Made by a program: the position numbers and the translations under genes. DNA of 64,000 nucleotides, from NCBI GenBank assembly GCA_017521245.1, contig JAFXDI010000023.1, positions 1,614-65,613 on the forward strand, given 5' to 3'. Shown here one piece after another: positions 10,921 through 57,674 of this stretch. The DNA is from Bacteroidales bacterium. GTDB lineage: Bacteria; Bacteroidota; Bacteroidia; Bacteroidales; G3-4614. Positions within the stretch are counted from its first letter, which is position 1, and every line of letters begins with the position of its first letter. The notes under the pieces were generated by a model. The model was not told where the DNA came from and searched no databases. It worked only from the letters and a program-made list of their open reading frames with translations.

Positions 10921-10961
10921 TAGAAAATAAGCGATGTCAAGTTTTTTTGACATCGCTTATT
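10921..10961 (-). terminator. rho-independent terminator after the tandem-CotH gene
   Basis: Perfect 15-bp stem AATAAGCGATGTCAA (10926-10940) / TTGACATCGCTTATT (10947-10961), followed on the minus strand by TTCTATATAAAT. Confidence 0.75.
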
Positions 10962-10985
10962 GATTGTTAGTTTTATAGAAAAATT

Positions 10986-13900
10986 CTACAAAGCGTTTAT
11001 TGCACTATCTAATGCTATTATACGATTGTCTATTGCCTGTTTCATCCTCTCAACTGCTGAATCAAAATCCATTAACTCATCGCCATTAGGATAGTTGTGG
11101 CGCGAATCTATTGGCCACATTTCATGGTTTACCGCCTCCGACTCACGAATTAAATCGGCTTGTTCATCAATGAATGTATCAATATTTTCAAATATGGGTT
11201 TTATCTCTGCCCAACGTGCTTTTATGGCTGTTCGGAACTCAGCAGAGTTCATTAACTGTCCATACCATAGAGAGTTTGTTAGCAACAATCCTGTTTTGTT
11301 TGGATCAAATGTTCCCCAGTCAAAATCCCAGATAGGTCCTGCACACAACTTACCTCCGGCATCTTTATACATATAGCAACTTTTGGGATGCTTGGGCTCT
11401 TCGTTTGAAGTAACCTCATGTATCAACAAATAATCGATATAGGTTGAGTAATCAATTTTGCTGAATACGGTCTCAAAATCATTATCTACAAGAGCATTCT
11501 CAACATCTCCTATATAGTTGTCAATATATGTAAAATATGGATGTGTCCACTCTGTTATTATCTCCTCATCGGGATCTTTTATAGTTACAGGGTAGCCATA
11601 GACTTGCGACATAAAATAGTTTATCTCTGCTTGATAGTTGGTGTCAAATTCCAATAGATAACCTCCATCTTCGCCTGTTGCTGTACCATCCTCAAACTCG
11701 GTGATATTTACTCTGTTTTTGTCAATCTTTATCTGCTCACACAGGTAGTAGTTTCCTTGATGAGAACCATTTAAATAGAACTCCACAAACTCACCTCTTG
11801 GTGCCCAATCCATTATCTGACGTGCCATCTCAAATGCTACTGCATTACGCATTAGGGTGCGGTCCATCCAGTTTGCCAACAATACCCAACGTTTATGTTT
11901 TGGCATACCTAAAACCTCTGCTTTACTATCAAGTTTAATGGCGTATGGCTTTTTAGGGTAGTTCCATGTTGAGTTTCCACGTCCTCGGAAGTTAGTTGTG
12001 GTATTCATAACCTCCTCGCCAAATTCATCTTCAATGCGGATTATGCACTCCTCTGTCCACACATCTTTACTTGTAATTGCTACTCCATTAGGTGTTTCAA
12101 CATATACTTTTGGAAGAGTTTTTTTTATCTCTTTAAAGTTGGCTTTCACCTCTGTTGTTGAAGTTACGACCAACTCCATAGGATTTTCGTTTCCAGCATC
12201 TGCGCCGTCAATAGTCCAATTTACAAATTTGCAACCCTCCGCCGGTGTTGCTGTAAGGGTAACTGTATCATTTGCATTTACTGTTGTTTTAGAAACCGAT
12301 ACCGTTCCCAATGTGCTGTTTGAAGATGTGGCTAATACTGAATATAGTGTCTCTGTCATCTCAAATTGAGAGTCAAGGTATGCAATACGATCTCGTACAT
12401 ACTCTTTTAGGAATTCAACCTCTGCCTCGTACGAGCCACGTGCTGCAAGTTCGTTGTAAACTATTGTATTTAATATATTCCAAACCTCAAAGTTATTCTT
12501 TTGCGAAGCATCAAGATAGGAGGCAGTAGTTGTGATATAGTTTGTCATAAATGCCTCTAATCCTGCGGCTCTCAACTCTGCCCAACGTGTTTTTACTGCC
12601 GATACAAAACCAGCATCTTGCCACCAACGAGAAATCCACGTTTTGGGTTCGTGTGCGTATGTTCGCATCATAAGGGTTGTTGCATCGCCCAAACGATTAT
12701 CGTTGTTGAAGGCTATATCAAAGTCCCATAGTGGTCCAAATTTAAATACGTCATCTCGCTCTTTATACATATAGGTACTCCACCATGCGTCAGAGTTTCC
12801 GAATAATTCACATGCTATGTACCAATCTACCATTGAGGCTTCATCTATGTATTTTCGCCATCCTAATTCTGCATCGGTAAAGTTGGTGCTGAACAGTGCA
12901 TCCTCCATCTGTTGGGTGTAGTTACTAATATAGTAACTTTGGTCAGAGTTTATCTCATCATCTTTGGGGTATTTAATTGTTACCTTCATTCCTCGTGTGG
13001 TTTGGAACCATGAGATTTCACTATCGGCAAAGCCGTCAACTTCAATTAGGTATCCGCCTGTTATTTCTGCATCACTCATTGTGGTTGTGGTCTCTTGCTC
13101 AGTTACTGGTACACGTTTTTTCTTTACCTCTACTTGGTCGGTTAGCATATAACTTCCCAAATTCTCACCATTCAACACTACATCAACAAATGTTACCGAT
13201 GGGGTAAAACCAAAGTTCATCATATTTCGTGCGGTCTCAAAGGCAAGGGCGTTACGCATTAGTGTTTTATCAGCATAGTTGGCTAACAATACCCAGTTTT
13301 TCTCTTTGGCTTCGTTACCCAAGAATTTGATTTTTTCATCAAATTTCAAGCGGTATGGTTTCTTTGCCATTCCCCATGTTGAGTTTCCTCGTCCTTTTAT
13401 CTCAGTGAGAACCTCTGTTATATTATCCTCTTCATTCTCTGCTCCACGTACTGTTACGTATGCGTTTACATAATCTTCTTTACTTGTTACTCCTACTCCA
13501 CCCTCTGTATTGATATAGATTGTGGGAACGGTTGTGAGTTGAGAGTACATATCTGTAAAGGTTGCTACATACTCAGCGTTACCTCTTGCTGTTATAGTGT
13601 AGGGATTTTCGGTTGATACTACCTCGCCATTTAGTGACCAACTCTCAAATTGAAAACCTGCATTGGCTGTTGCGGTAAGTGTTACTTCCGTTCCTTCAAG
13701 AGGATTTGGATTAGATACTTCAACACTTCCTCCTTTAGCAACTGTTGCTGATACGGTTACGGTCTCTGCTTGACGGAAACATACCTCAATCTCTGTGTTG
13801 GCAGATATAGTTGCTACGTAAGGGTTATCTGTTGATATTTGCAATCCGTTTATTTTCCAACACTCAAATACATATCCTGCATTGGCTGTTGCCAACAAGG

Positions 13901-14939
13901 TTGCTTTGTCAACGTTTTCATCTACAACTGATGCTGTTCCTGCCAATTGAGGTGTTGATTTAAATGTTACATCGTATAATAAATCGGTTGCTCCAACCCG
14001 AAGCGTTAAATCACATACAACTCCACCATTGTTTTGTATTGAGTTTTTAGAGTCGGTTGAGCCACAAGGATCGAGCGATTCCCAGTCAATTTTAAAACGC
14101 ATACGATATTCGCCCGATTCGAGATTTTCAGGTAATGTCCACGATGGAATATTGTTTGCATATACTCCACATGAGTTTGAAACAACATTTCCTTTACTGT
14201 CAGTACCAACATTACTATCATCGGCAGAATAGAAGTTATAACTTACCAACTCTCCATCGTTGTTTCCGTAGGGATTTGATGTAGTATTAAAAACGCCATC
14301 TCTGTTATAGTCAATATATACAAATGCATGCATCCAAGCTCCTGTCCAATCCATTTCCGAGAAGTTTAGTGTCTCGCCCTGTTGGGTGTGTAGATAAAAT
14401 TCTGTTTTGTCTTTATATACTGCATCACGAGTTGAAGATTGGATATTTGAGAGTGATAAACTATTTGTTCCATCAGTAAGAGTAAATGAGTTCAACTGAC
14501 GACTACTTAACATAGTTCCTTCTGGAGTACAATATTGCAACTGACTCTCTTCAAAGTTTGCAACGTATGTTACCGCTCCGTTTACCACTACTGAGCAACT
14601 ATTGTTTGTTGAAACAACACTTCCATTAAGTGTCCAGTTTACAAATTGGTATCCACTATTTGCCACCGCTTTTAGGGTAATTGACTCTCCCTCTTTAAAG
14701 AGGTCTGATGTTGTTTTATCATTGATTAAGACATATCCTGCTTCAGAGTTGTTTGCAGTTACTCCAACTTGGTAAAGTGCAACCTTATCGAATTTTATAC
14801 TATCTACTTCAGAGATAAGATAACTATTTAATATCTCTCCATCTTTATAAATTTTTACAACTCGTTCATATTGCTGAGCAAGTATAACAGTTGCAAATGT
14901 TGCCAAAGCAACAATTAATGTGATAAATTTTGTTTTCAT
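10986..14939 (-). CDS. secreted multidomain protein with two CotH kinase-like modules, divergent InlB B-repeats and a GEVED-like domain
   Basis: The track ORF starts at a TTG (14990). I prefer ATG 14939 (MKTKFITLIVALATFATVILAQQ, a signal peptide). CotH hallmarks occur twice: RGNSTW..KKPY.LKF, LLAN..D.TLMRNA.AFE, GGYL.E, WDFD. No T9SS C-terminal domain at the C-terminus. Confidence 0.8.
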   Translation of the reverse strand: MKTKFITLIVALATFATVILAQQYERVVKIYKDGEILNSYLISEVDSIKFDKVALYQVGVTANNSEAGYVLINDKTTSDLFKEGESITLKAVANSGYQFVNWTLNGSVVSTNNSCSVVVNGAVTYVANFEESQLQYCTPEGTMLSSRQLNSFTLTDGTNSLSLSNIQSSTRDAVYKDKTEFYLHTQQGETLNFSEMDWTGAWMHAFVYIDYNRDGVFNTTSNPYGNNDGELVSYNFYSADDSNVGTDSKGNVVSNSCGVYANNIPSWTLPENLESGEYRMRFKIDWESLDPCGSTDSKNSIQNNGGVVCDLTLRVGATDLLYDVTFKSTPQLAGTASVVDENVDKATLLATANAGYVFECWKINGLQISTDNPYVATISANTEIEVCFRQAETVTVSATVAKGGSVEVSNPNPLEGTEVTLTATANAGFQFESWSLNGEVVSTENPYTITARGNAEYVATFTDMYSQLTTVPTIYINTEGGVGVTSKEDYVNAYVTVRGAENEEDNITEVLTEIKGRGNSTWGMAKKPYRLKFDEKIKFLGNEAKEKNWVLLANYADKTLMRNALAFETARNMMNFGFTPSVTFVDVVLNGENLGSYMLTDQVEVKKKRVPVTEQETTTTMSDAEITGGYLIEVDGFADSEISWFQTTRGMKVTIKYPKDDEINSDQSYYISNYTQQMEDALFSTNFTDAELGWRKYIDEASMVDWYIACELFGNSDAWWSTYMYKERDDVFKFGPLWDFDIAFNNDNRLGDATTLMMRTYAHEPKTWISRWWQDAGFVSAVKTRWAELRAAGLEAFMTNYITTTASYLDASQKNNFEVWNILNTIVYNELAARGSYEAEVEFLKEYVRDRIAYLDSQFEMTETLYSVLATSSNSTLGTVSVSKTTVNANDTVTLTATPAEGCKFVNWTIDGADAGNENPMELVVTSTTEVKANFKEIKKTLPKVYVETPNGVAITSKDVWTEECIIRIEDEFGEEVMNTTTNFRGRGNSTWNYPKKPYAIKLDSKAEVLGMPKHKRWVLLANWMDRTLMRNAVAFEMARQIMDWAPRGEFVEFYLNGSHQGNYYLCEQIKIDKNRVNITEFEDGTATGEDGGYLLEFDTNYQAEINYFMSQVYGYPVTIKDPDEEIITEWTHPYFTYIDNYIGDVENALVDNDFETVFSKIDYSTYIDYLLIHEVTSNEEPKHPKSCYMYKDAGGKLCAGPIWDFDWGTFDPNKTGLLLTNSLWYGQLMNSAEFRTAIKARWAEIKPIFENIDTFIDEQADLIRESEAVNHEMWPIDSRHNYPNGDELMDFDSAVERMKQAIDNRIIALDSAINAL
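10989..12125 (-). other. CotH module 2 (approximate domain bounds)
   Basis: LPKVYVETPNG...RGRGNSTWNYPKKPYAIKL...LLANWMDRTLMRNAVAFE...GGYLLEFD...GPIWDFDWGTFD. Confidence 0.65.
12360..13535 (-). other. CotH module 1 (approximate domain bounds)
   Basis: TVPTIYINTEGG...KGRGNSTWGMAKKPYRLKF...LLANYADKTLMRNALAFE...GGYLIEVDG...GPLWDFDIAFNND. Confidence 0.65.
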
Positions 14940-15108
14940 ATTTCTTTTTTTGAGTTGTTTGTTGTTAGAGTCTTTATTTGCTAAAAACAAAGGTACTAAG
15001 TACCGTACAACTAAAAACTAACAAATCTGCGATTAAGCAAGAGCAGAAGCATACTTGTTTGAGTTATGCCAAGCGGTAAGCAGATTCAACAAACGAATGT
15101 TTGTTAAC

Positions 15109-15609
15109 TTATTTTAAAATCTTCTCTGTTACTATTTGCCCGTTTGCTTGTACTACTACAACATATATACCTCTTGGATATGCACTTATATTGTACGACA
15201 CACTATTTTCATTGGGTATTTGTGCCATCATTTGCACTCCTTGCATATTATATACCTGCACCATTGATATTGGCTCTGGGGCTACAATTTGCAGTTCTTC
15301 TACTCCTGACAGATATTTTATCTCTATCTCTGCACTCTCAATTTCGTTCTCCTCTATTGAAGTTATATCAGTATCTCCAAAGGTTATAACTTCAATATCA
15401 TCAATTAGCATTGGGCTTGCAACACCTTTCATAGTTAATAGAACTTCATCTTCTGAAGGAAAGGTAATTTTATCTATCTCATCAATAGATATTGAGGTTG
15501 CCTTGCCTGTTGAATTTAGATAGATATTCATATAACTATCCTCCGATGCTATTACTGATAAAGTAATTGTCATCATCATTGTTGTTATTAAAATTTTTAA
15601 TCTCTTCAT
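15109..15609 (-). CDS. small T9SS C-terminal-sorting-domain protein (166 aa)
   Basis: Signal peptide, then ~70 aa of short beta-type modules, then a CTD-like tail (MVQVYNMQGVQMM...YPRGIYVVVVQANGQIVTEKILK). The fully overlapping plus-strand ORF 15101-15523 is rejected. Confidence 0.7.
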   Translation of the reverse strand: MKRLKILITTMMMTITLSVIASEDSYMNIYLNSTGKATSISIDEIDKITFPSEDEVLLTMKGVASPMLIDDIEVITFGDTDITSIEENEIESAEIEIKYLSGVEELQIVAPEPISMVQVYNMQGVQMMAQIPNENSVSYNISAYPRGIYVVVVQANGQIVTEKILK

Positions 15610-15632
15610 AATATATAGAATTTATCAATTTA

Positions 15633-16925
15633 CTAAAACATTACCGATGTTGATACTCCTGTAAAAAGTTCGTGCTGCATCTGTTGTGGTGCAAGTCGTG
15701 ATGAAGATAGGAGATTGTAATCGCAGTCTAATGAGAATCGCATATTCTCTGTTGCAAGATATGAAAGCGAAACTCCCGTTACAAAGCCAAAACTTCCGTC
15801 ATTTTTTTCGATACCTCGCTCTTGCCACGATGCACAACCTGAATAGAAGTTATAACCAAATAGAGTTTTTGAGCCTATTGCCCATCGTGATGAGAGTTGT
15901 GTTTCGTAATATGCTCCTACATATAGCGACAACTCTCCCATCCAATCTTCCATTATCTCTTCATTAACCGCAAACATATTATTGCTTACGGCAACTCTTC
16001 CTCCTACTCCGATGTTTTTGTGAGGGAAATATACCCCCTCAAAACCTACACGATTGCCAACCTTAATATCAATCTTTTCACCATTTGAGGCTGTATAGTT
16101 GCCAAACACTGTTGACACCCCTATCATTGAGGAGAAACGAGAAGGTTTTCTGCCATACTCCCATTTTGGGGGTACTGCTTTATATAGCAACCCCTTATCT
16201 TTGAATATAAGATCGGCAAAATAGTATCCAAGTTCGGCCGATACTATTCCTATCCCTGCTCCTACAAAAAGGTCGCTTACCCAATGTTCAGAATTAAATT
16301 GACGTCCCATTGCGGTAAGTGATGCTACTGTATATGATGCAACTGGTATCCATGGCGAAAGATGGCCATACTCTTTATTTAAAAGTGTAGCTGACATAAA
16401 TGCTGTTGCTGTGTGTCCTGATGGAAACGAATGGTTATCCTCTCCGTTTGGGCGAGGAGAGTCTATTGTATGTTTTAATAACTCAACCGAGCCTACCATA
16501 AGAGCAACAGAGAAGAGATCGGATGTTATCATTCTGCCCCACGATGAACGACCTTTTACCCCTGCCACCTTCATTATATATTTAGTTGCAATGGAAAGGT
16601 ATTGGATGTAATCATCAAATGGGCATTTTGTTCCTCGTGTTTTGGTCATTTGGTATGTTGCAAAACGATTATCTTCGGGCTTAGTTGCCACACCTGCCAC
16701 TACCATTGGGAGCGCTAATGCTGTTATCTCAAATGCTTTTGATGATGTGATATGGTCAAATTTTGTAACTTCATAGATATTTAAACTCTCTTTCTCCTCT
16801 CCATCTTTTGGAATGGTTGATAATTCTTGAGGAGTTGTGTAGATTGTTATTCTGTTTAATGCACACAGAGGAGTTGCTTCTATAAAAAGCAATAGCAAAA
16901 ATATTAAAATAGATACCCCTCTCAT
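15633..16925 (-). CDS. PAP2-family phosphatase fused to a C-terminal beta-barrel-like domain
   Basis: All three PAP2 motifs are present: KHTIDSPRP, PSGH, SEHWVSD. The C-terminal ~180 aa has alternating hydrophobic beta-strand patterning and ends in ...GVSTSVMF (terminal Phe, as in outer-membrane barrels). Confidence 0.75.
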   Translation of the reverse strand: MRGVSILIFLLLLFIEATPLCALNRITIYTTPQELSTIPKDGEEKESLNIYEVTKFDHITSSKAFEITALALPMVVAGVATKPEDNRFATYQMTKTRGTKCPFDDYIQYLSIATKYIMKVAGVKGRSSWGRMITSDLFSVALMVGSVELLKHTIDSPRPNGEDNHSFPSGHTATAFMSATLLNKEYGHLSPWIPVASYTVASLTAMGRQFNSEHWVSDLFVGAGIGIVSAELGYYFADLIFKDKGLLYKAVPPKWEYGRKPSRFSSMIGVSTVFGNYTASNGEKIDIKVGNRVGFEGVYFPHKNIGVGGRVAVSNNMFAVNEEIMEDWMGELSLYVGAYYETQLSSRWAIGSKTLFGYNFYSGCASWQERGIEKNDGSFGFVTGVSLSYLATENMRFSLDCDYNLLSSSRLAPQQMQHELFTGVSTSVMF

Positions 16926-16945
16926 TAAACCTTATATTTGACACC

Positions 16946-16976
16946 CAAATATAATTATTTATATTTGACCTACAAA
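16946..16976 (-). promoter_or_regulatory. Bacteroides-type promoter upstream of the PAP2 gene
   Basis: On the minus strand: TTTG (16976-16973), 19-nt spacer, TATATTTG (16953-16946). Lies about 20 nt upstream of ATG 16925. Confidence 0.55.
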
Positions 16977-17037: not shown

Positions 17038-17313
17038 CTATTTACTCTCTTTTTTTAACGGAGATAGTTGTTGTTCGTTGGGTGTATATACCTTTTTTGT
17101 TTTCTTTCGGGGTGTTCGTTTTTTTTCTTTGACGGTATCCGTTGGGACAACTCTATTTTTGAACTCCTCTATCTCTGTTCTATAATCTTTTGCGACAACT
17201 TCACTTTCTCTCTTAGAGTAAAACTTCACTGCCAATAGCAACGCTATGATAATTGTTAATGCTATTGCCGCTATACGCTCTGCCTTTGTAAAGTTCCAGA
17301 ATTTGTCCGACAT
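17038..17313 (-). CDS. single-pass membrane protein with lysine-rich tail (hypothetical, ~91 aa)
   Basis: I prefer ATG 17313 (MSDKFWNFTKAERIAAIALTIIIALLLAV...), 4 nt after the TAG of the upstream transporter. The track start 17334 would overlap that gene. Confidence 0.45.
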   Translation of the reverse strand: MSDKFWNFTKAERIAAIALTIIIALLLAVKFYSKRESEVVAKDYRTEIEEFKNRVVPTDTVKEKKRTPRKKTKKVYTPNEQQLSPLKKESK

Positions 17314-17317
17314 ACAC

Positions 17318-18664
17318 CTATATTTTAAACACACCTGTTAATGAAAGGAATATGAATATTATAGCAATAGGAGCTATAAATTTTATACTAAAGAGTATTA
17401 GTTTATATATTAGTGATGGATGTTTTCCTCCGCCCAACTCAGCAAGAAAATCTCTCTTCTTCATTACCCATCCTACATATATTGCCAACAAAAATCCTCC
17501 TATGGGAAGCAATATATTTGCTGAGAAGTAATCAGATAGTTCAAAGAAATTCATATCGAATAGTTTTATTTCTCTTAGTAAACTAAACGATAGTGATGAT
17601 AACACACTCAACACGGCTACAATAAAAAGTATTACTATTGATGCTTTTTTACGTCCAACTTTAAATTCTTCTGATATATATGCTATTGCTACCTCAAGTA
17701 GTGATATAGTTGATGTTAATGCCGCCACCGCAGCAAAGATAAAGAACAATACTGCCCACAGGTCTGGCATAAACATCTGCTTAAACACATTGGGCAGGGT
17801 TACAAATATTAAATCAGGGCCTTGAGTTGGACTTATTCCAAACGATGCCATAATTGGGAATATCATAACCCCTGCGAGTATAGCAACTAACATATCCAAT
17901 AGAGCAACTGTTAATCCTGTTTTGGGCAATGATACGTTTCGTTTAAAATAGGAGCCGTATGTTATTAGTATTCCAAGACCTATACTTAACGAGAAGAATG
18001 CCTGTCCCATCGCAGCCAACACCACTCCTCCGTCTATTTTAGAGAAATCGGGATTGAAAAGATAGTTTAATCCCTTTGCTGCGCCCGGTAATGTGAGCGC
18101 ATACCCACAAAATACAAGCAATATCAAAAATAGTAGTGGCATCATTATATTTGATGCTTTCTCTATACCCTTAGTTACTCCTCGCGATATAATCAGATAG
18201 TTTATAACAAGTAATGCTCCCATCCAAACAAGAGGTCTCCATATATTGGTTTTAAAAGCATTAAAACTATCTGATATCTCAGTTGCCGACAATGCAAAAA
18301 GTTCCCCTTTAAATGCTTGATAGACATACTCAACTACCCACCCTGCAATAACCATATAGTAACCAAGTATGAGTGTTGAGGCAAGAATACCTATATACCC
18401 TATAACGTGCCATTGCGACTTTGGTGCCAATACTTTTAATGCTCCCGCTGCATTGGTACGAGATTTACGTCCAATTGCAAACTCGGCACACATTAGGGGT
18501 ATTCCTAATACCAAAACACAACATATATATACCACAAGAAAGGCTCCTCCTCCATTCTCAGCTGTCATATAGGGAAATCGCCATATATTACCTAACCCAA
18601 CAGCTGATCCTACTGTTGCCGCTATAACTCCTATTTTTGTCGCAAATTGCGCTCTTTCGCTCAT
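17318..18664 (-). CDS. sodium-dependent transporter, neurotransmitter:sodium symporter (SNF) family
   Basis: 448 aa, about 11-12 TM segments, signature GLGNIWRFPY near the N-terminus. Confidence 0.9.
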   Translation of the reverse strand: MSERAQFATKIGVIAATVGSAVGLGNIWRFPYMTAENGGGAFLVVYICCVLVLGIPLMCAEFAIGRKSRTNAAGALKVLAPKSQWHVIGYIGILASTLILGYYMVIAGWVVEYVYQAFKGELFALSATEISDSFNAFKTNIWRPLVWMGALLVINYLIISRGVTKGIEKASNIMMPLLFLILLVFCGYALTLPGAAKGLNYLFNPDFSKIDGGVVLAAMGQAFFSLSIGLGILITYGSYFKRNVSLPKTGLTVALLDMLVAILAGVMIFPIMASFGISPTQGPDLIFVTLPNVFKQMFMPDLWAVLFFIFAAVAALTSTISLLEVAIAYISEEFKVGRKKASIVILFIVAVLSVLSSLSFSLLREIKLFDMNFFELSDYFSANILLPIGGFLLAIYVGWVMKKRDFLAELGGGKHPSLIYKLILFSIKFIAPIAIIFIFLSLTGVFKI

Positions 18665-51725: not shown

Positions 51726-54700
51726 ATGAGATCTAAAGCAATTCTATTTCTTGCATTGTTTGTAACACTATTTGCAACTAATGCAAAAGCCGCCTATGAT
51801 GTTTCTCATGGGGCAAACGTGAATATCTCACACTCAACGCACTATCCCATAGCAGTAAACATTAGTGGGACAGAGAGTCCCGTTCAGTTACTAAACAACA
51901 TTGCAACCGCACCCAGATGTGCGGCATACTTTGACAAGACAAGCACTGTATTTGAAGTAAGAGCAGGAGAAACTGTTACTCCAAATATCTCAATCAACGG
52001 AGACTGGATGCATGGTTATGTATATGTCGATTGGAACAACAATGGGCAATTTGACGTTAACATTACCGGAACAGGACCTTACACTAAAGGAACAAACAAT
52101 GAGTTGATGTGCTGGTCACTATACGGACACAACACCGATGGAGATACAGGATACAACAGCGATGGAGTATATCAATCAAGCGGAAATGTTCTTGCTCCGG
52201 GTTCTTTCACCGTTCCTGCTGGATTATCAGAGGGAGCAACTTTCCGTATGCGTTACAAAGTTGAGTGGAACAATATTGAACCCGCCGGATCATCAAGCAA
52301 TAAATTCTTAATAGACGGAGGTTCTATCATTGACGTTACTCTTAAAATTGTAGCAAGCAGTGGCAATATTGATACAGATGAACAATATCCTATTAATGAC
52401 TACACAGAGCCTCGCGTTGGAACAACTCCCGATGAAGCTGCGTGGTCAACAATTGAGGACGGATTAAACGCAACATGGGCATCACGCGACGTACACTATA
52501 AATTGCACGAAGTTCCCGAAGTTACAAAGAAGAGCGAAGCAACAATCTACGCTTGGCAAGGAGAACGTGCAAACATTCAAGCATTGCTTTATAGCAAAAC
52601 AGATCAAGGCTATTTGAGTGTTCGTATGACAACATGGAAGAAAGGCGAAACAGCAACAACCATAAATGCAGGTGAGGCTCGTTTTGTAAACTATGTTATT
52701 ACAGATGATTACAAACAATGTGGTGATCATCCCATTAACTTAACACCATGGTTGGTAGCCGATGTCATTGACCAAGACAAACCACACGCAGTTCCAGCAA
52801 TGGAGACCCGCCCTGTATGGTGTAAAATAGAGGTTCCTCGCAATATAGAGGCAGGAACATATAACACAACTTTGGAGATTGTTGATGAAAACGAGCAAGT
52901 AGTTGAGACATTAAAACTATATATAAACGTAAACAGTCGTTCAATTCCTGAGGTTAAAGATCAAAAATTCCACTTAGACTTTTGGCAACAACCATACGCA
53001 GTAAGTCGTTACTACCAAGTTGACCGCTGGAGCGATGCTCACATTGAAGCACTTCGCCCATACCTTGAGGCATTAGGTAAAGCAGGACAAAGAACAGTTA
53101 CTGCAATTCTGTTCTACGAACCTTGGGGAGTTCAATCACACGACAAATTTGACCCAATGATTCAAACAACAAAGAAAACAGATGGAACATGGAGTTATGA
53201 CTATACAATATTCGACAAATATGTAAACCTATGTGCCGAGTATGGTATTGACAAACAGATAAACTGTTTCAGCATGGTACCATGGGATATGAGTTTCCGC
53301 TATTGGGACGAGGCAACAAATTCATACCAAACCATTTCAACCACAACAGGAACAACAACATACCAAGACCTCTGGAATAGTTTCCTATCATCATTCAAAG
53401 CACACCTGCAATCAAAAGGGTGGTTTGACAAGACAAACATTGCTATGGATGAGCGTGCAGAGGCAGATATGTTGAACGCATATAACATTGCAAGTGGTTT
53501 AGGATTTAAGATGGCATTGGCAGGAAACTATCACTCATCATTGAGCGACAAACTTCAGGATTTCTGCGTAGCATTAGGACAAGACAAGAGTTTCACCGAT
53601 GCACAACGCCAATATCGTAAATCAAACAACATGGTAACAACCGTATATACAAGTTGTGCCGATGTTGAACCAAACATCTACTCAAACTCACTTCCAGCAG
53701 AGGCAACATTCTTACCTATCTACGCTGCGGCAAACGATTTGAGCGGATACCTACACTGGTCATGGATGAACTGGGCAGAAAACCCATTAAAAGATACACG
53801 TTTCCGTTTGTTTGGAGCAGGAGATACATATTGCTACTACCCAGGCAATCGTTCAAGTGTAAGATTTGAACGTTTAGTTGAGGGAATACACCAATATGAA
53901 AAGATACAAATTCTAAAAGAGGAGTATAAAAACGACTCTGAAAAATTGGCTACACTTAACGGATTGTTAGACAGATTTATGAGCAGTTCGGTTGCAGGAG
54001 AGCAATGTGCTAAATATGTTAATGATTTGGAGAACTTCCTCAATGGACTCGATGTTACGATACCAACACCTCAGGATGTAACAACAGGATACTACCATAT
54101 AGTGAGCCGTGCAACTGCTCGTACCGAGAATATCTATAACGATGCATTCCTAAGCGGTAACACCAAGAAATTTACACTTCAATCAGACAGTAAAGTTACT
54201 ACCAACAATGGTATATGGCATGTAACAGTTAATAGCAACACACTTGGCATTAAGAACGGAGACGGAAACAACTTGATTGCAGGAGCAAGTTACTATGGAA
54301 ATGTAGTAGGTAATTTCAGTCAACTAACAATTGGCTCAACTTACGATGTTGGCGAGTACCGTTACTACTTCTTTAATGAAGCACTAAACTGTACAAACGG
54401 AGATGTAAACTTCAAAGTAAACAATATCGACTACGTAACAACATGGACAGACGGTCCAGCTACTGCCGATGACCTACAATGGCGTTTTGAGCCAGTTGAT
54501 ATGGAAGGCAAGAGAGCATACACCGTAGTTTTGAACGGAGCTGCATCGGGAGCATACGTTACATATACACACGGCATAGTAGTTGAGAAAGCATTTAACG
54601 GAGGATTCTTTATTGCTCCAGAAAATGTTGCCGCAACAGCATTCTCGGTTGTTGTTCCCAACGAAATTGTATTAGGAGCAGATATTCAAGTAGCAAACGG

Positions 54701-57674
54701 CACAATTACAGTTTCTAACATTGTATTAATGGAAGAGCCTGAAAAGATTGAGTTGTTCAACACGAGTAGAGGTAGTATGACTATCCCTCCCTATCGTATT
54801 CCGGGTATCGCAAAAACAAGCACAGGACGCCTAATAGCAGTTGCAGGACGTTTGGTCTGCGGAACAGACCCCGGATACGGACAAGTTGACGCAGTATGTC
54901 GTATAAGTGATGACAACGGAAAAACTTGGGGAGCAGAAAAAGATATTGCTGTTGGAACAGGACGAACATCAGCAACCGTAAACTACTTTGATACAGCCTT
55001 TGGAGATCCTGCCATTGTTGCAGACCGTACAAGCCAAGAGGTAGCAGTTATAGTAGTTGCAGGATGTACAGTATATGGCAATGGTAACACAACTCGTAGT
55101 AACCCAAATAAGATAGGAATAATACACAGTACCGATAACGGAAACACATGGGGGACACCTGTTGATATTACAGAACAAATCTACTCATTGTTTGACAGCG
55201 GTAATCCAATTGAATCGGCATTCGTAGCAGGAGGTAAAGTATTCCAAAGCCGTATAGTTAAGAAAGGGCAATACTACCGTTTATACGCTGCAATGTGTGC
55301 TCGTCCCAACGGAAACCGAGTAATATACTCTGACGACTTTGGACGTACTTGGCATGCACTTGGAGGAGCAAGTGCACTACCGGCACCCAGCGGTGATGAG
55401 CCAAAATGCGAAGAGACACCAGACGGACGCGTAATACTCTCAAGCCGTACAGCAGGTGGTCGTTACTATAATATATTCACCTACACCAACACAATGGAGG
55501 CTGAAGGAAGTTGGAGTACCGATGTTAAGAGTACATTCTCCGGTTCAGGTAAAACTCCGGGAAACAACTCAACCAATGGAGAAATTTTGATTGTTCCCGT
55601 TAAACGCAACAGCGACAACAAAGAGATGTACTTGGCATTGCAATCTCTTCCAACCGGAAGCAGTCGTACAAATGTTGGAATCTTCTACAAAGAGCTCACA
55701 GAATATTCTGATTATAGCAATGTGGCAAACCTTGCAACGGGTTGGGACGGATACTACGAAGTAAGTTCAACTGCTTCGGCATATAGTTCAATGGATCTAC
55801 AAGCCGACAACAAAATAGCCTTTATCTACGAGGAGACATTAACAAAACATGGTACAGCACAAAACCCAGTATCAACAAGTTTCCCAACAGGAGCAGGAAC
55901 TCACAACTATGATGGATTCGACAACTTCTATATTGGCTACAACTTGGAGTATATAACCAATGGAGCATATAGCGTTAAAACAGACGTAAATCGTGGAAAC
56001 ATTGTAAAGAAATATCTAACATCATACGTTGCAAATGCTGAGGCATCAGAAGAACTTAAAGCCGAAGCAAACGAGGCAGTAGAGGCACTGGGAGATAACC
56101 CAACAACAACCGAAATTGATAACATATATACACTACTCCAACCACGCGACCCTTTTGACGGTAAGGTTGTAACATTCACAAACGTTCAACAAAACGGGAT
56201 GGAATACACCATATATGTTAACAGTAGCAACAAACTTGCATTGAGCAGTTCAAATGCAACAACACTTGGAGAGAGCGCACAATTTGAGTGTACAAAACAA
56301 GATAATGGCAAATACTCATTTCGCAATGTTGCAACAAATATGTATATGATATGGCGTGCAGGGGATAGCCAAAATTATGGATATAACAGCAATTCAGGAA
56401 CATTATCAACATACAATGCAACATATTGCGACTTCTCAATAGTTGACGGAAGTTCAACAAAAGAGGGAACATACTATATGGTTGGTAAGAGAGACGGCGG
56501 TTCATCAGAGGGAACATTTGTAGCAATGTCAGCAACAGGAGTCTTTGACTCATGGGGCAACTCAGTTGCATGGTCAAGCACATACAGCAACCTATATAAA
56601 ATAGGCTTTATAGAGATTGCTCCCACAACATATACAGTTACAGTATCAACCGAGAACTCTTTGTACGGAACAGTAGCAATTCAAGGAAACACAGGAACAA
56701 CAGCAGATATTGAAGAGGGAGCAACTGTTACAGTAGTTGCAACACCAGCTGAAAGTTATCAATTTGAGGGTTGGTATTCAAACGGAACAGAGGTTAGTGC
56801 AGATGCTTCGTACACATTTACAGTATCGGCAGAAACATCATTACAAGCAAGATTTGAGGAGATTCCTACCACTCCCGAAGAGCCAGAGTACTGTACAACT
56901 TTCGGCACATCAACTCGCACAAACGGAGATAGAAAATTAACCTCATTCACACTTTCTGACGGAGCAAACGAAGGCACAATAGACGTAAATCAATCATCTG
57001 CATCAGGAGCAAATATATATTTTGACAAAACAGATATTGCAATATCACTTGAAGCAGGCAAAGAGATTACATCAACAATCAATTGGTCTGGAACATGGAT
57101 GCACTCATACTTGTACATCGACTTCAACGATGACAAAGAGTTTACCCCAGTAGTATTAAATAATGCAGTAACAGAAGATAGCGAGTTACTGTCATACTCA
57201 TTCTGGGCAGGAACAGACGGAGCACCATCAACCACAGGAGCAAACGACAGTTACGGATACAACAGTGCTGGTCAATATATAACAGGAGATAATCGTTCAG
57301 TATGGGCATTACCGGCATTTACTATCCCGTCAACGGTAGCAGAGGGAACTTATCGTGCAAGGCTAAAAATAGACTGGAACACTGCTAACGCATGTGCAAT
57401 AAACAGCACCGACGAAGCACCTTGTATTGTTGACTTTATGATAACAGTAACATATCCCGATGGAATCGCAGATGCCGATGCTAACACAGTAAAAGTTTTC
57501 GCAACTGACAGAGGTATTATCATAAAAGGTTACGAAGGCAACGTAAAAGTAGTAAACGTAGTTGGACAACTTATTAAAGACCTATACGTAAACGGAGAGG
57601 CTCAACTTGACATAAACGCAGGTTTCTACATTGTAGTAACCGGAGAGAAAGCAACAGAGGTAGTAGTTAAATAG
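51726..57674 (+). CDS. 1982-aa T9SS cargo: GEVED-like domain, DUF4091/GH123-like region, unassigned beta-rich domains, GH33 sialidase, InlB B-repeat, second GEVED-like domain, T9SS CTD
   Basis: Signal peptide MRSKAILFLALFVTLFATNAKA. Sialidase YRIP motif (Y1023) and three Asp boxes (SDDNGKTW, STDNGNTW, SDDFGRTW). C-terminal sorting-domain pattern (VKVVNVVGQLIKDLYVNGEAQLDINAGFYIVVTGEKATEVVVK). Confidence 0.85.
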   Translation: MRSKAILFLALFVTLFATNAKAAYDVSHGANVNISHSTHYPIAVNISGTESPVQLLNNIATAPRCAAYFDKTSTVFEVRAGETVTPNISINGDWMHGYVYVDWNNNGQFDVNITGTGPYTKGTNNELMCWSLYGHNTDGDTGYNSDGVYQSSGNVLAPGSFTVPAGLSEGATFRMRYKVEWNNIEPAGSSSNKFLIDGGSIIDVTLKIVASSGNIDTDEQYPINDYTEPRVGTTPDEAAWSTIEDGLNATWASRDVHYKLHEVPEVTKKSEATIYAWQGERANIQALLYSKTDQGYLSVRMTTWKKGETATTINAGEARFVNYVITDDYKQCGDHPINLTPWLVADVIDQDKPHAVPAMETRPVWCKIEVPRNIEAGTYNTTLEIVDENEQVVETLKLYINVNSRSIPEVKDQKFHLDFWQQPYAVSRYYQVDRWSDAHIEALRPYLEALGKAGQRTVTAILFYEPWGVQSHDKFDPMIQTTKKTDGTWSYDYTIFDKYVNLCAEYGIDKQINCFSMVPWDMSFRYWDEATNSYQTISTTTGTTTYQDLWNSFLSSFKAHLQSKGWFDKTNIAMDERAEADMLNAYNIASGLGFKMALAGNYHSSLSDKLQDFCVALGQDKSFTDAQRQYRKSNNMVTTVYTSCADVEPNIYSNSLPAEATFLPIYAAANDLSGYLHWSWMNWAENPLKDTRFRLFGAGDTYCYYPGNRSSVRFERLVEGIHQYEKIQILKEEYKNDSEKLATLNGLLDRFMSSSVAGEQCAKYVNDLENFLNGLDVTIPTPQDVTTGYYHIVSRATARTENIYNDAFLSGNTKKFTLQSDSKVTTNNGIWHVTVNSNTLGIKNGDGNNLIAGASYYGNVVGNFSQLTIGSTYDVGEYRYYFFNEALNCTNGDVNFKVNNIDYVTTWTDGPATADDLQWRFEPVDMEGKRAYTVVLNGAASGAYVTYTHGIVVEKAFNGGFFIAPENVAATAFSVVVPNEIVLGADIQVANGTITVSNIVLMEEPEKIELFNTSRGSMTIPPYRIPGIAKTSTGRLIAVAGRLVCGTDPGYGQVDAVCRISDDNGKTWGAEKDIAVGTGRTSATVNYFDTAFGDPAIVADRTSQEVAVIVVAGCTVYGNGNTTRSNPNKIGIIHSTDNGNTWGTPVDITEQIYSLFDSGNPIESAFVAGGKVFQSRIVKKGQYYRLYAAMCARPNGNRVIYSDDFGRTWHALGGASALPAPSGDEPKCEETPDGRVILSSRTAGGRYYNIFTYTNTMEAEGSWSTDVKSTFSGSGKTPGNNSTNGEILIVPVKRNSDNKEMYLALQSLPTGSSRTNVGIFYKELTEYSDYSNVANLATGWDGYYEVSSTASAYSSMDLQADNKIAFIYEETLTKHGTAQNPVSTSFPTGAGTHNYDGFDNFYIGYNLEYITNGAYSVKTDVNRGNIVKKYLTSYVANAEASEELKAEANEAVEALGDNPTTTEIDNIYTLLQPRDPFDGKVVTFTNVQQNGMEYTIYVNSSNKLALSSSNATTLGESAQFECTKQDNGKYSFRNVATNMYMIWRAGDSQNYGYNSNSGTLSTYNATYCDFSIVDGSSTKEGTYYMVGKRDGGSSEGTFVAMSATGVFDSWGNSVAWSSTYSNLYKIGFIEIAPTTYTVTVSTENSLYGTVAIQGNTGTTADIEEGATVTVVATPAESYQFEGWYSNGTEVSADASYTFTVSAETSLQARFEEIPTTPEEPEYCTTFGTSTRTNGDRKLTSFTLSDGANEGTIDVNQSSASGANIYFDKTDIAISLEAGKEITSTINWSGTWMHSYLYIDFNDDKEFTPVVLNNAVTEDSELLSYSFWAGTDGAPSTTGANDSYGYNSAGQYITGDNRSVWALPAFTIPSTVAEGTYRARLKIDWNTANACAINSTDEAPCIVDFMITVTYPDGIADADANTVKVFATDRGIIIKGYEGNVKVVNVVGQLIKDLYVNGEAQLDINAGFYIVVTGEKATEVVVK
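52437..54050 (+). other. DUF4091 / GH123-like region (tentative, approximate bounds)
   Basis: ATIYAWQGERANIQALLYS, HLDFWQQPY, and an adjacent Asp-Glu pair in NIAMDERAE (D575-E576, nt 53448-53453). Family call is from memory only. Confidence 0.45.
54747..55960 (+). other. GH33 exo-alpha-sialidase catalytic domain (approximate bounds)
   Basis: YRIPGIAKTSTGRLIAV, three S-x-D-x-G-x-T-W Asp boxes, DEPK, AYSSMD (candidate nucleophile Tyr), FIYEE. Confidence 0.85.
57474..57671 (+). other. T9SS C-terminal sorting domain
   Basis: The last ~65 aa have the alternating beta-strand pattern and terminal K typical of Por secretion tails. Confidence 0.7.

Follow-up and report, generated by a model that had tools for sequence, protein, structure and literature searches.

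A PAP2-barrel phosphatase gene and a mini-CTD/tandem-CotH gene pair may be joined in a composite locus of a Bacteroidales genome

Do three neighbouring genes that look like one operon also work as one system? This question is raised by a locus in a 64,000-nucleotide (nt) stretch of Bacteroidales DNA (assembly GCA_017521245.1, contig JAFXDI010000023.1, positions 1,614 to 65,613), here called the window, in which three genes on the same strand encode a PAP2 phosphatase fused to an outer-membrane beta-barrel (PAP2-barrel protein), a very small type IX secretion system (T9SS) cargo protein with a C-terminal sorting domain (CTD; mini-CTD protein), and a large secreted protein with two CotH modules (tandem-CotH protein). 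The original prediction for this locus had joined the three genes into one module, either an extracytoplasmic kinase/phosphatase pair with a small anchored adaptor, or a coupling of lipid A dephosphorylation to the surface display of a CotH protein. This proposed three-gene module dissolves once the locus is compared with other genomes. On balance, and with reserve, we lean towards reading the locus as composite: two units with separate functions, brought onto one probable transcript by a recent rearrangement. The first unit would be the PAP2-barrel gene, which occurs elsewhere in Bacteroidales alone or behind a two-component system, and the second the mini-CTD/CotH pair, in which the small protein would anchor the large one by proxy. 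The positions of all features are collected in Table 1.

The PAP2-barrel protein combines a helical PAP2 domain with an eight-stranded beta-barrel, and its AlphaFold2 (AF2) model is of good overall quality (predicted local distance difference test score, pLDDT, 82; predicted template modelling score, pTM, 0.80). Pfam places PAP2 (PF01569) at amino acids (aa) 149-237 (1.2e-11, 44.9 bits against a cut-off of 27.2). The catalytic motifs KX6RP, PSGH and (S)RX5HX3D are all found, as KHTIDSPRP, PSGH and GRQFNSEHWVSD, the third opening with G instead of S, and in 22 homologues the residues K151, R158, P159, S169, G170, H171, R208, H214 and D218 never vary. In Foldseek searches the N-terminal half matches the transmembrane PAP2 enzyme PgpB (5jki), and the barrel half matches the 8-strand outer-membrane proteins OmpA/OmpW/OprG/Ail/OmpX (probability 1.0, target-normalised TM-score 0.5-0.63). 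Most homologues end in an aromatic residue, and the window protein has a hydrophobic N-terminus (MRGVSILIFLLLLFIEATPLCA).

This architecture has a published counterpart in LpxE of Porphyromonas gingivalis (PG1773/PGN_1713), a 'non-standard' enzyme introduced as a "new class of lipid A 1-phosphatase", which has a signal peptidase I (SPI) signal, a PAP2 domain, a C-terminal barrel of ~200 aa and a predicted outer-membrane location (Wang et al. 2025, PMC12704123). Homologues were reported from Alistipes, Bacteroides, Barnesiella and Parabacteroides, with 21 species given, and the activity of P. gingivalis LpxE requires a working T9SS, which was ascribed to an unidentified T9SS cargo (PMC12704123). 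The window protein shares with this enzyme the N-terminal PAP2 domain with full catalytic motifs, a beta-rich C-terminal region of ~180-200 aa that is modelled as an 8-strand barrel, a total length of 420-450 aa, a hydrophobic N-terminus that may be of the Sec/SPI type and the same four homologue genera; we liken the two by published architecture and genus overlap rather than by sequence alignment. By this analogy, the window protein is most likely an outer-membrane phosphatase of the P. gingivalis LpxE type that acts on lipid A as its presumed substrate, the architecture assigning neither 1- nor 4'-phosphate specificity. The LpxE equivalog of NCBIfam scores 18.8 bits against the protein (cut-off 177). 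The gene adds one more member to a class that was described recently and that our searches widen from the 21 published species to thousands of protein clusters: homologues fall into >3000 clusters and were confirmed in 407 stretches of species-representative genomes.

If the three genes formed a module, PAP2-barrel genes should often be accompanied by the other two. We ran the window proteins against 80 species loci that contain a PAP2-barrel homologue and reach up to 10 kb to either side of it (compared loci carry L numbers). Neither a CotH nor a mini-CTD gene lies within 10 kb in 74 of the 80 loci. The remaining six (L008-L013), in all of which the PAP2 identity is at least 62%, carry a CotH gene, and a mini-CTD gene between PAP2 and CotH was found in L008 and L009 only (2/80, about 90% identity), which leaves the window, L008 and L009 as the only places where all three genes stand together. 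The six CotH-positive relatives have also kept the flanking SNF transporter and glutamate decarboxylase (gad) genes wherever the flank suffices, and with such shared flanks common ancestry is enough to explain the PAP2-CotH adjacency. Conversely, the partners occur without PAP2. At the syntenic site of L092, which like several close relatives of the window carries the label Candidatus Caccoplasma, an SNF transporter gene, a small open reading frame (ORF) and a tandem-CotH gene follow one another with no PAP2 gene between them, the PAP2-barrel gene lying on another contig (57% identity to the window); L101 and L103 have a mini-CTD and a CotH gene, and no PAP2 gene within the 8-kb flank examined. 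Because CotH and mini-CTD genes are absent from most PAP2-barrel loci, the three-gene module is unsupported, in either of its proposed forms. Gene-neighbourhood co-occurrence, which the original prediction had named as a check, thus turned out against it, and the PAP2 component is essentially a routine type of putative lipid A phosphatase, of an architecture already published for P. gingivalis LpxE, that is found without these partners.

In other loci, PAP2-barrel genes most often stand next to genes for an OmpR-type response regulator and a HisKA histidine kinase, which lie directly upstream on the same strand in 16-17 of the 80 loci. Such two-component-linked loci occur in several genera (e.g. 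L035:8075-9828, L038, L040, L042, L044, L049, L059, L077, L085). This linkage suggests that lipid A dephosphorylation may be regulated in several Bacteroidales genera, and its frequency bears on how that regulation might work. A second type of neighbourhood was seen in L034:7290-9863 and ~13 more loci, where the PAP2-barrel gene stands after genes for a P-type cation ATPase and a conserved, unannotated membrane protein of ~480 aa. Of these about 14 ATPase-linked loci, all except one bear the label Alistipes, and the linkage may simply be genus-level synteny. It brings to mind the enterobacteria, in which cation transport is linked to lipid A remodelling.

The second unit would consist of the mini-CTD gene and a Sec-exported partner without CTD or lipid anchor. 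The mini-CTD protein is composed of a signal peptide, two short repeats and a type A CTD. The sorting domain passes the thresholds of TIGR04183 (41.1 bits, cut-off 23) and of Pfam PF18962/Por_Secre_tail (29.5 bits, cut-off 27), with the match at aa 108-166 of 166, that is, at the extreme C-terminus. The C-terminal 72 aa superpose on the CTD of RemZ in the T9SS translocon (8gl8_D), the best match in the PDB (target-normalised TM-score 0.78, root-mean-square deviation 1.8 A), and the CTDs of PorZ, mirolase and RgpB match the model as well. The protein thus resembles type A CTD cargo such as RemZ, RgpB, mirolase and PorZ. Unlike usual T9SS cargo, it has a passenger that is nearly nil, just two repeats of ~25 aa, and its gene is regularly paired with that of a CTD-less secreted protein. 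PorA of P. gingivalis, a small CTD protein, is presumably a loose precedent. We recovered 226 proteins of the mini-CTD family, mostly 156-181 aa long, and in their alignment the N-half with the two repeats is the most conserved part, nearly invariant. The AF2 confidence of this half, modelled alone, is low (pLDDT 47-65); we took the model as reliable for the CTD only and disregarded fold matches of the N-half. Poor modelling of so conserved a segment is compatible with folding on a partner; it proves nothing. Among the scanned ORFs of the 64-kb window we found no T9SS components. A scan of metagenome contigs with the mini-CTD alignment yielded only two short loci, and the context statistics given here rest on the contigs that encode family members.

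The partners of mini-CTD genes, in turn, have a short segment in common at their mature N-terminus, an N-module of ~35 aa with the pattern VKIYKDGE...SEIDSIKF. Partners of the Lcl_C/InlB-repeat type open with the signal peptide MKT(R/K)xITL followed by the N-module (e.g. RVIKLYKDGEVIKKYNLSELDSVRF), and the window CotH protein and all its orthologues begin alike (QQYERVVKIYKDGEILNSYLISEVDSIKF). Among 13,520 ORFs from 1.7 Mb of Bacteroidales DNA, matches to a hidden Markov model (HMM) of the N-module were restricted to CotH orthologues and mini-CTD partners, with E-values of 1.7e-20 to 2.7e-10 (window CotH: 9e-20) and a next best match at E = 15; four fragments were returned when the N-module alignment was run against a set of 5.8 billion proteins. 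In every distinct context found, the window arrangement and about eight others, the mini-CTD gene adjoins the gene of an N-module protein, which is a tandem CotH in the window and an Lcl_C/InlB-repeat protein in most relatives. No CTD or lipobox was seen in the partners in the contexts examined.

The pairing is not confined to close relatives of the window. Two CotH proteins, P0301 and P0311, were picked solely as non-lipoproteins with an N-module-like start. The gene of P0301 (L101/L102) has a gene for a 176-aa CTD protein 24 nt upstream (TIGR04183 27.7 bits), which is 27% identical to the window mini-CTD protein over its full length (E = 8e-20). That of P0311 (L103/L104) is overlapped by an upstream gene for a 159-aa protein with two repeat motifs and a CTD (23.2 bits against the TIGR04183 cut-off of 23). 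As both loci lack PAP2 within the flank examined, the pairing of mini-CTD and N-module CotH genes recurs independently of PAP2 and, judging by sequence, in divergent lineages and unrelated surroundings. The numerical relation between the two genes varies: one mini-CTD gene precedes two consecutive N-module genes in L099 (L099:7001-14095), and one shares its locus with CotH and Lcl_C N-module genes in L092 (L092:2266-13209; also L001). Some partners contain a second, internal copy of the N-module (L090, aa 266-299; L092, aa 234-261).

Table 1. Features of the locus in the window, and the gene arrangements in which mini-CTD genes were found.
Feature	Position or loci	Strand	Basis
Predicted Bacteroidetes-type promoter, TTTG-N19-TATATTTG	16976-16946	minus	pattern scan
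PAP2-barrel gene (PAP2 + C-terminal 8-stranded outer-membrane beta-barrel)	16925..15633	minus	430 aa ORF; Pfam, AF2 model, Foldseek
Helical PAP2 domain, about aa 55-240	16206..16763	minus	AF2 helices at 63-240; Foldseek 5jki
Beta-barrel domain, aa 263-430, ending ...VMF	15636..16139	minus	eight long strands at 263-429
Mini-CTD gene (mini T9SS cargo)	15609..15109	minus	166 aa ORF
Two conserved repeats, aa 26-83: YMNIYLNSTGKATSISIDEIDKITF / VLLTMKGVASPMLIDDIEVITF	15361..15534	minus	family alignment
T9SS type A C-terminal sorting domain, aa 95-166	15112..15327	minus	AF2 pLDDT 85-91
Hairpin without U-tract, directly 3' of mini-CTD stop	15107-15086	minus	9-bp stem by folding
Conserved leader travelling with mini-CTD gene; includes TACCTTTG (itself unconserved)	14940..15025	minus	comparison by eye
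Small hairpin GGTAC-TTA-GTACC + T-run in leader	15004-14992	minus	hairpin list
Tandem-CotH gene	14939..10986	minus	1317 aa from ATG
N-module, aa 22-60: QQYERVVKIYKDGEILNSYLISEVDSIKFDKVALYQVGV	14760..14876	minus	HMM from 12 examples
CotH module 1, aa 514-855	12375..13400	minus	Pfam CotH full profile
CotH module 2, aa 941-1317, protein's end	10989..12119	minus	second Pfam stretch
Intrinsic terminator, 15-bp stem then UUUUCU	10961-10926	minus	-20.5 kcal/mol, z = -9.5
Mini-CTD gene adjoining CotH gene	window/L008/L009		
Small gene directly upstream of CTD-less Lcl_C and/or InlB B-repeat protein (512-1919 aa)	L088/L089/L097/L098, L090/L091, L092, L001/L011, L099/L100, L094		
Lcl_C/InlB-type N-module protein directly upstream of small gene	L095/L096		

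How could two such genes work together? As a tentative proposal, which we regard as possible rather than probable, the mini-CTD protein is a dedicated T9SS carrier or anchor onto which N-module passengers dock by proxy; the passengers would be interchangeable, and the cassette of anchor gene and leader mobile between passenger genes. After export by the T9SS, the mini-CTD protein would become attached to anionic lipopolysaccharide (LPS), its repeats would bind the N-module of the partner, and the partner would thereby be carried through the T9SS or held at the cell surface. For the CotH protein of the window, this anchoring would take the place of the lipid anchor probably present in most close CotH homologues. 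The T9SS moves folded proteins (PMC9251779). The proposed route is reminiscent of hitchhiker (piggyback) export in the twin-arginine translocation (Tat) pathway and in peroxisomal import, where a signal-less partner rides on, or is retained by, a small signal-bearing one; unlike these cases, hitchhiking in the T9SS is deduced here only from gene pairing and shared motifs. The searched literature gave no account of a pair of mini-CTD and tag-less partner and no precedent for T9SS piggybacking or hitchhiking, and the pair of mini-CTD and N-module passenger genes is apparently undescribed.

The component families, that is, PAP2-barrel lipid A phosphatases, T9SS CTDs and CotH, are all known already. 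The recurrent gene pair provides a testable explanation of how non-lipidated CTD-less proteins of gut Bacteroidales, both adhesin-like and CotH, could reach the surface or stay there. If this explanation is true, proxy targeting would add a two-component or 'hitchhiker' mode to the T9SS repertoire, and N-module and mini-CTD together would be a small portable tag system for surface display. What is left of the original prediction is the hypothesis of a small anchored adaptor that serves a CotH protein without its own CTD, given the consistent adjacency of mini-CTD genes to those of CTD-less non-lipoproteins that share the N-module, and this hypothesis extends beyond the window locus; the kinase/phosphatase trio built around it does not stand.

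Several observations weigh against the composite reading and its proxy anchoring. The N-module HMM does not match the mini-CTD protein, and hhalign aligns the mini-CTD repeats with the N-module over 17 columns at a probability of 13%. Homology between the two was considered and is not established by either method, the likeness being a shared short pattern only. The CotH orthologues of L003 and L013 carry the N-module, and no mini-CTD gene lies within 10 kb of them. All ~9 distinct contexts come from related Bacteroidales metagenome-assembled genomes, and the binding of mini-CTD protein and partner, the partner's secretion and its surface location are read from gene pairing and motifs. Furthermore, the six closest relatives have the PAP2 and CotH genes adjacent to each other, and the gaps that were measured span 30-78 nt; this adjacency may reflect a clade-specific functional link between them, and the dependence of P. 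gingivalis LpxE on a T9SS cargo (PMC12704123) allows for a connection between the PAP2 unit and T9SS cargo.

Among the alternatives, the one that survives best holds that mini-CTD and N-module proteins are co-expressed and non-binding, and that the related motifs of both attach to something else, for instance a surface glycan, LPS or an outer-membrane protein, or serve to sort the proteins to vesicles. The short, pattern-like character of the motif similarity would fit this, as would the single mini-CTD gene before two N-module genes in L099 and the two-N-module loci L092 and L001. We nevertheless think it unlikely, as it leaves unexplained how a partner without CTD or lipid anchor crosses the outer membrane, and the invariant N-half of the mini-CTD protein suggests a specific constraint at the protein level. 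It is improbable that the CotH protein is periplasmic and the small CTD gene unrelated to it, their adjacency being a by-product of recombination at similar 5' ends. Partner genes do have similar 5' ends (ATGAAAACA..., MKT(R/K)xITL), which could promote cassette shuffling, but the pairing recurs in highly divergent lineages, with a mini-CTD protein only 27% identical and in different surroundings, and this recurrence points to selection rather than accident behind it.

That all three proteins cooperate, be it as a kinase/phosphatase pair with adaptor or by coupling lipid A dephosphorylation to the display of CotH, appears very improbable to us. The genes do lie on one strand with tight spacing between one promoter and one terminator, and the PAP2-CotH adjacency is retained in the six closest species loci; against this stand the 74 loci without either partner, the CotH gene without PAP2 in L092, the pairs without PAP2 in L101 and L103, the restriction of the intervening mini-CTD gene to L008 and L009, and the conserved SNF transporter/gad flanks, which let shared ancestry explain the adjacency. 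Least credible of all is a role of the mini-CTD protein as the T9SS cargo by which PAP2-barrel phosphatases of the LpxE type become active at the outer membrane (model 1 of Wang et al. 2025): the published T9SS dependence (PMC12704123) and the direct adjacency of the two genes in the window, 23 nt apart, would suit it, but outside the window this adjacency is limited to two species (about 90% identity), mini-CTD genes at other loci are preceded by a promoter-like box of their own and paired with genes of N-module proteins, and the 226 mini-CTD proteins recovered compare with >3000 PAP2-barrel clusters.

Under the composite reading, the window arrangement itself asks for an explanation, and the neighbourhood data argue for a recent accident behind the adjacency of PAP2 and mini-CTD genes. 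The 85-nt leader in front of the CotH gene shows ~90% identity, judged by eye, to the stretch that separates the mini-CTD and Lcl_C genes in L088 (L088:8508-8637), whereas the mini-CTD proteins of window and L088 share just about 57% identity. The leader core is also present in L008, L009, L089 and L094, and the regions upstream of CotH in L001, L003, L010, L013 and L092 are unrelated to it. Because the leader is common to L088 but absent from these other CotH upstream regions, the simplest reading of the sequences is a recent insertion: an ancestral PAP2-CotH neighbourhood, as in L003, L010 and L013, would later have received the mini-CTD gene together with its leader between the two genes, the right-hand junction falling at the passenger gene's 5' end, where partner genes are similar. 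Mini-CTD genes elsewhere carry their own TAnnTTTG box 40-60 nt upstream, whereas the window copy starts 23 nt past the PAP2 stop. The small leader hairpin, GGTAC-N3-GTACC followed by a T-run, is conserved between window and L088 and could be an attenuator that sets the ratio of anchor to passenger, or another RNA element.

Conservation within the locus is uneven. In L013 the CotH modules (L013:11302-15252) are 92-94% identical to those of the window and the PAP2 protein (L013:10001-11269) just 63%; in L001 the PAP2 protein is 73% identical and the N-terminal region of CotH 57%. Such unevenness suggests that parts of the locus have recombined or been exchanged. The number of CotH modules differs as well: orthologues with two modules (1317-1319 aa) occur in the window, L001, L013 and L092, and orthologues with one (867 aa) in L003, L004, L005 and L012 (L003:11317-13920 against 10986-14939 in the window). 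As both forms exist, the second CotH module and its B-repeat were probably gained or lost recently.

The transcriptional layout bears out much of what had been predicted for it. The ORF list and the sequence agree with three same-strand genes at the predicted positions and with a gap of 23 nt between the PAP2 stop and the mini-CTD ATG, and Pfam and NCBIfam uphold the labels PAP2, T9SS CTD and tandem CotH. Between the mini-CTD and CotH genes lie 169 nt; the mechanical ORF of the tandem CotH begins at a TTG (14990), as against the ATG at 14939. A Bacteroidetes-type promoter match 21 nt upstream of the PAP2 ATG is the sole full match on the minus strand within the locus, and the pattern occurs 11 times in the whole window against 2.84 expected. 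The claim of a single complete promoter holds for this strand; the plus strand carries a mirror match of its own (16937-16967). Both matches fall within a near-palindromic AT-rich stretch (16937-16976), and the plus-strand copy faces 17038-17334, where ORFs are minus-strand only. A sigma-70 scan (37 matches, 35.6 expected) is uninformative for this organism. At the other end, the single strong terminator with its 15-bp stem was recovered as predicted, and by its folding energy and z score the hairpin is a convincing one. With one promoter match, gaps of 23 nt and 169 nt, a weak 5-bp hairpin with T-run in the leader and one strong terminator, the three genes are probably on one transcript.

Two further elements had been noted in the intergenic region. 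The hairpin behind the mini-CTD stop is present and has no U-tract, as claimed, with a stem of 9 bp instead of 7 bp. The -7-like box TACCTTTG at 14995-14988 is indeed isolated, as no TTTG was found at the right spacing from it in the gap. We rejected this box as a conserved internal promoter: it is unconserved in the closest leader-bearing relative, L008 reading TACCTTGT and L088 TACCTTAG, and its TTTG is missing in both. An internal promoter before CotH may nonetheless exist, as far as the sequence goes. Upstream of the locus, a 98-aa ORF (17038-17334) without Pfam match overlaps the 3' end of the SNF transporter gene; corresponding ORFs of 88-92 aa take the same place in L001, L003 and L092.

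The tandem-CotH protein consists of an SPI-type signal peptide, the N-module, InlB B-repeats, a GEVED domain, the first CotH module, a further B-repeat and the second CotH module. Pfam finds CotH (PF08757) twice, Flg_new_2 (InlB B-repeat) four times, and GEVED, and NCBIfam gives no match; the predicted lack of an own CTD was thus confirmed by both scans, and we found no lipobox in the protein either. The CotH match (5e-86, 289.5 bits) extends in two stretches over profile positions 1-322 of 322, and both modules retain all 19 invariant columns of our alignment A5, among them R-G-N, K56, D86, D223, W-D-x-D and W335. In these two full-length profile matches and in the family-invariant polar residues kept in both modules, the protein resembles the Bacillus CotH spore-coat kinase (5jd9/5jda). 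Unlike the latter, it is exported by means of a signal peptide, has its modules in tandem and fused to InlB B-repeats and GEVED, and belongs to a non-sporulating Bacteroidales organism. In B. subtilis CotH, D228 and D251 are the reference residues for nucleotide binding and catalysis. A profile built from close homologues, module 2 included, matches B. cereus CotH 5jd9 at 1.1e-7, the alignment covering residues 38-129 of the N-lobe only, so that the likeness to Bacillus CotH does not extend to mapped catalytic residues; phmmer searches with the CotH protein or with module 1 against the PDB sequences returned nothing relevant. From these sequence features, kinase activity of the modules is conceivable.

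The CotH module family comprises 12,788 representative clusters at E <= 1e-3. A lipobox cysteine is present in at least 103 of the 150 closest representatives, which are probably lipoproteins. To these presumed Bacteroidota homologues the window protein is similar in its CotH module (40-60% identity), which they usually carry C-terminally; it differs in the combination of SPI-type signal and N-module, which it has in common with a few others. The few non-lipoprotein representatives begin with N-module-like motifs.

In L092, a DUF6088/AbiEii pair directly follows the Lcl_C passenger gene (L092:13527-15210), which hints at a variable island in this region. The window itself encodes another large surface-type protein without CTD, a secreted protein of 1982 aa (51726-57674) that has a signal peptide, GEVED, GH123, BNR/sialidase-like repeats and an InlB B-repeat, and no N-module.

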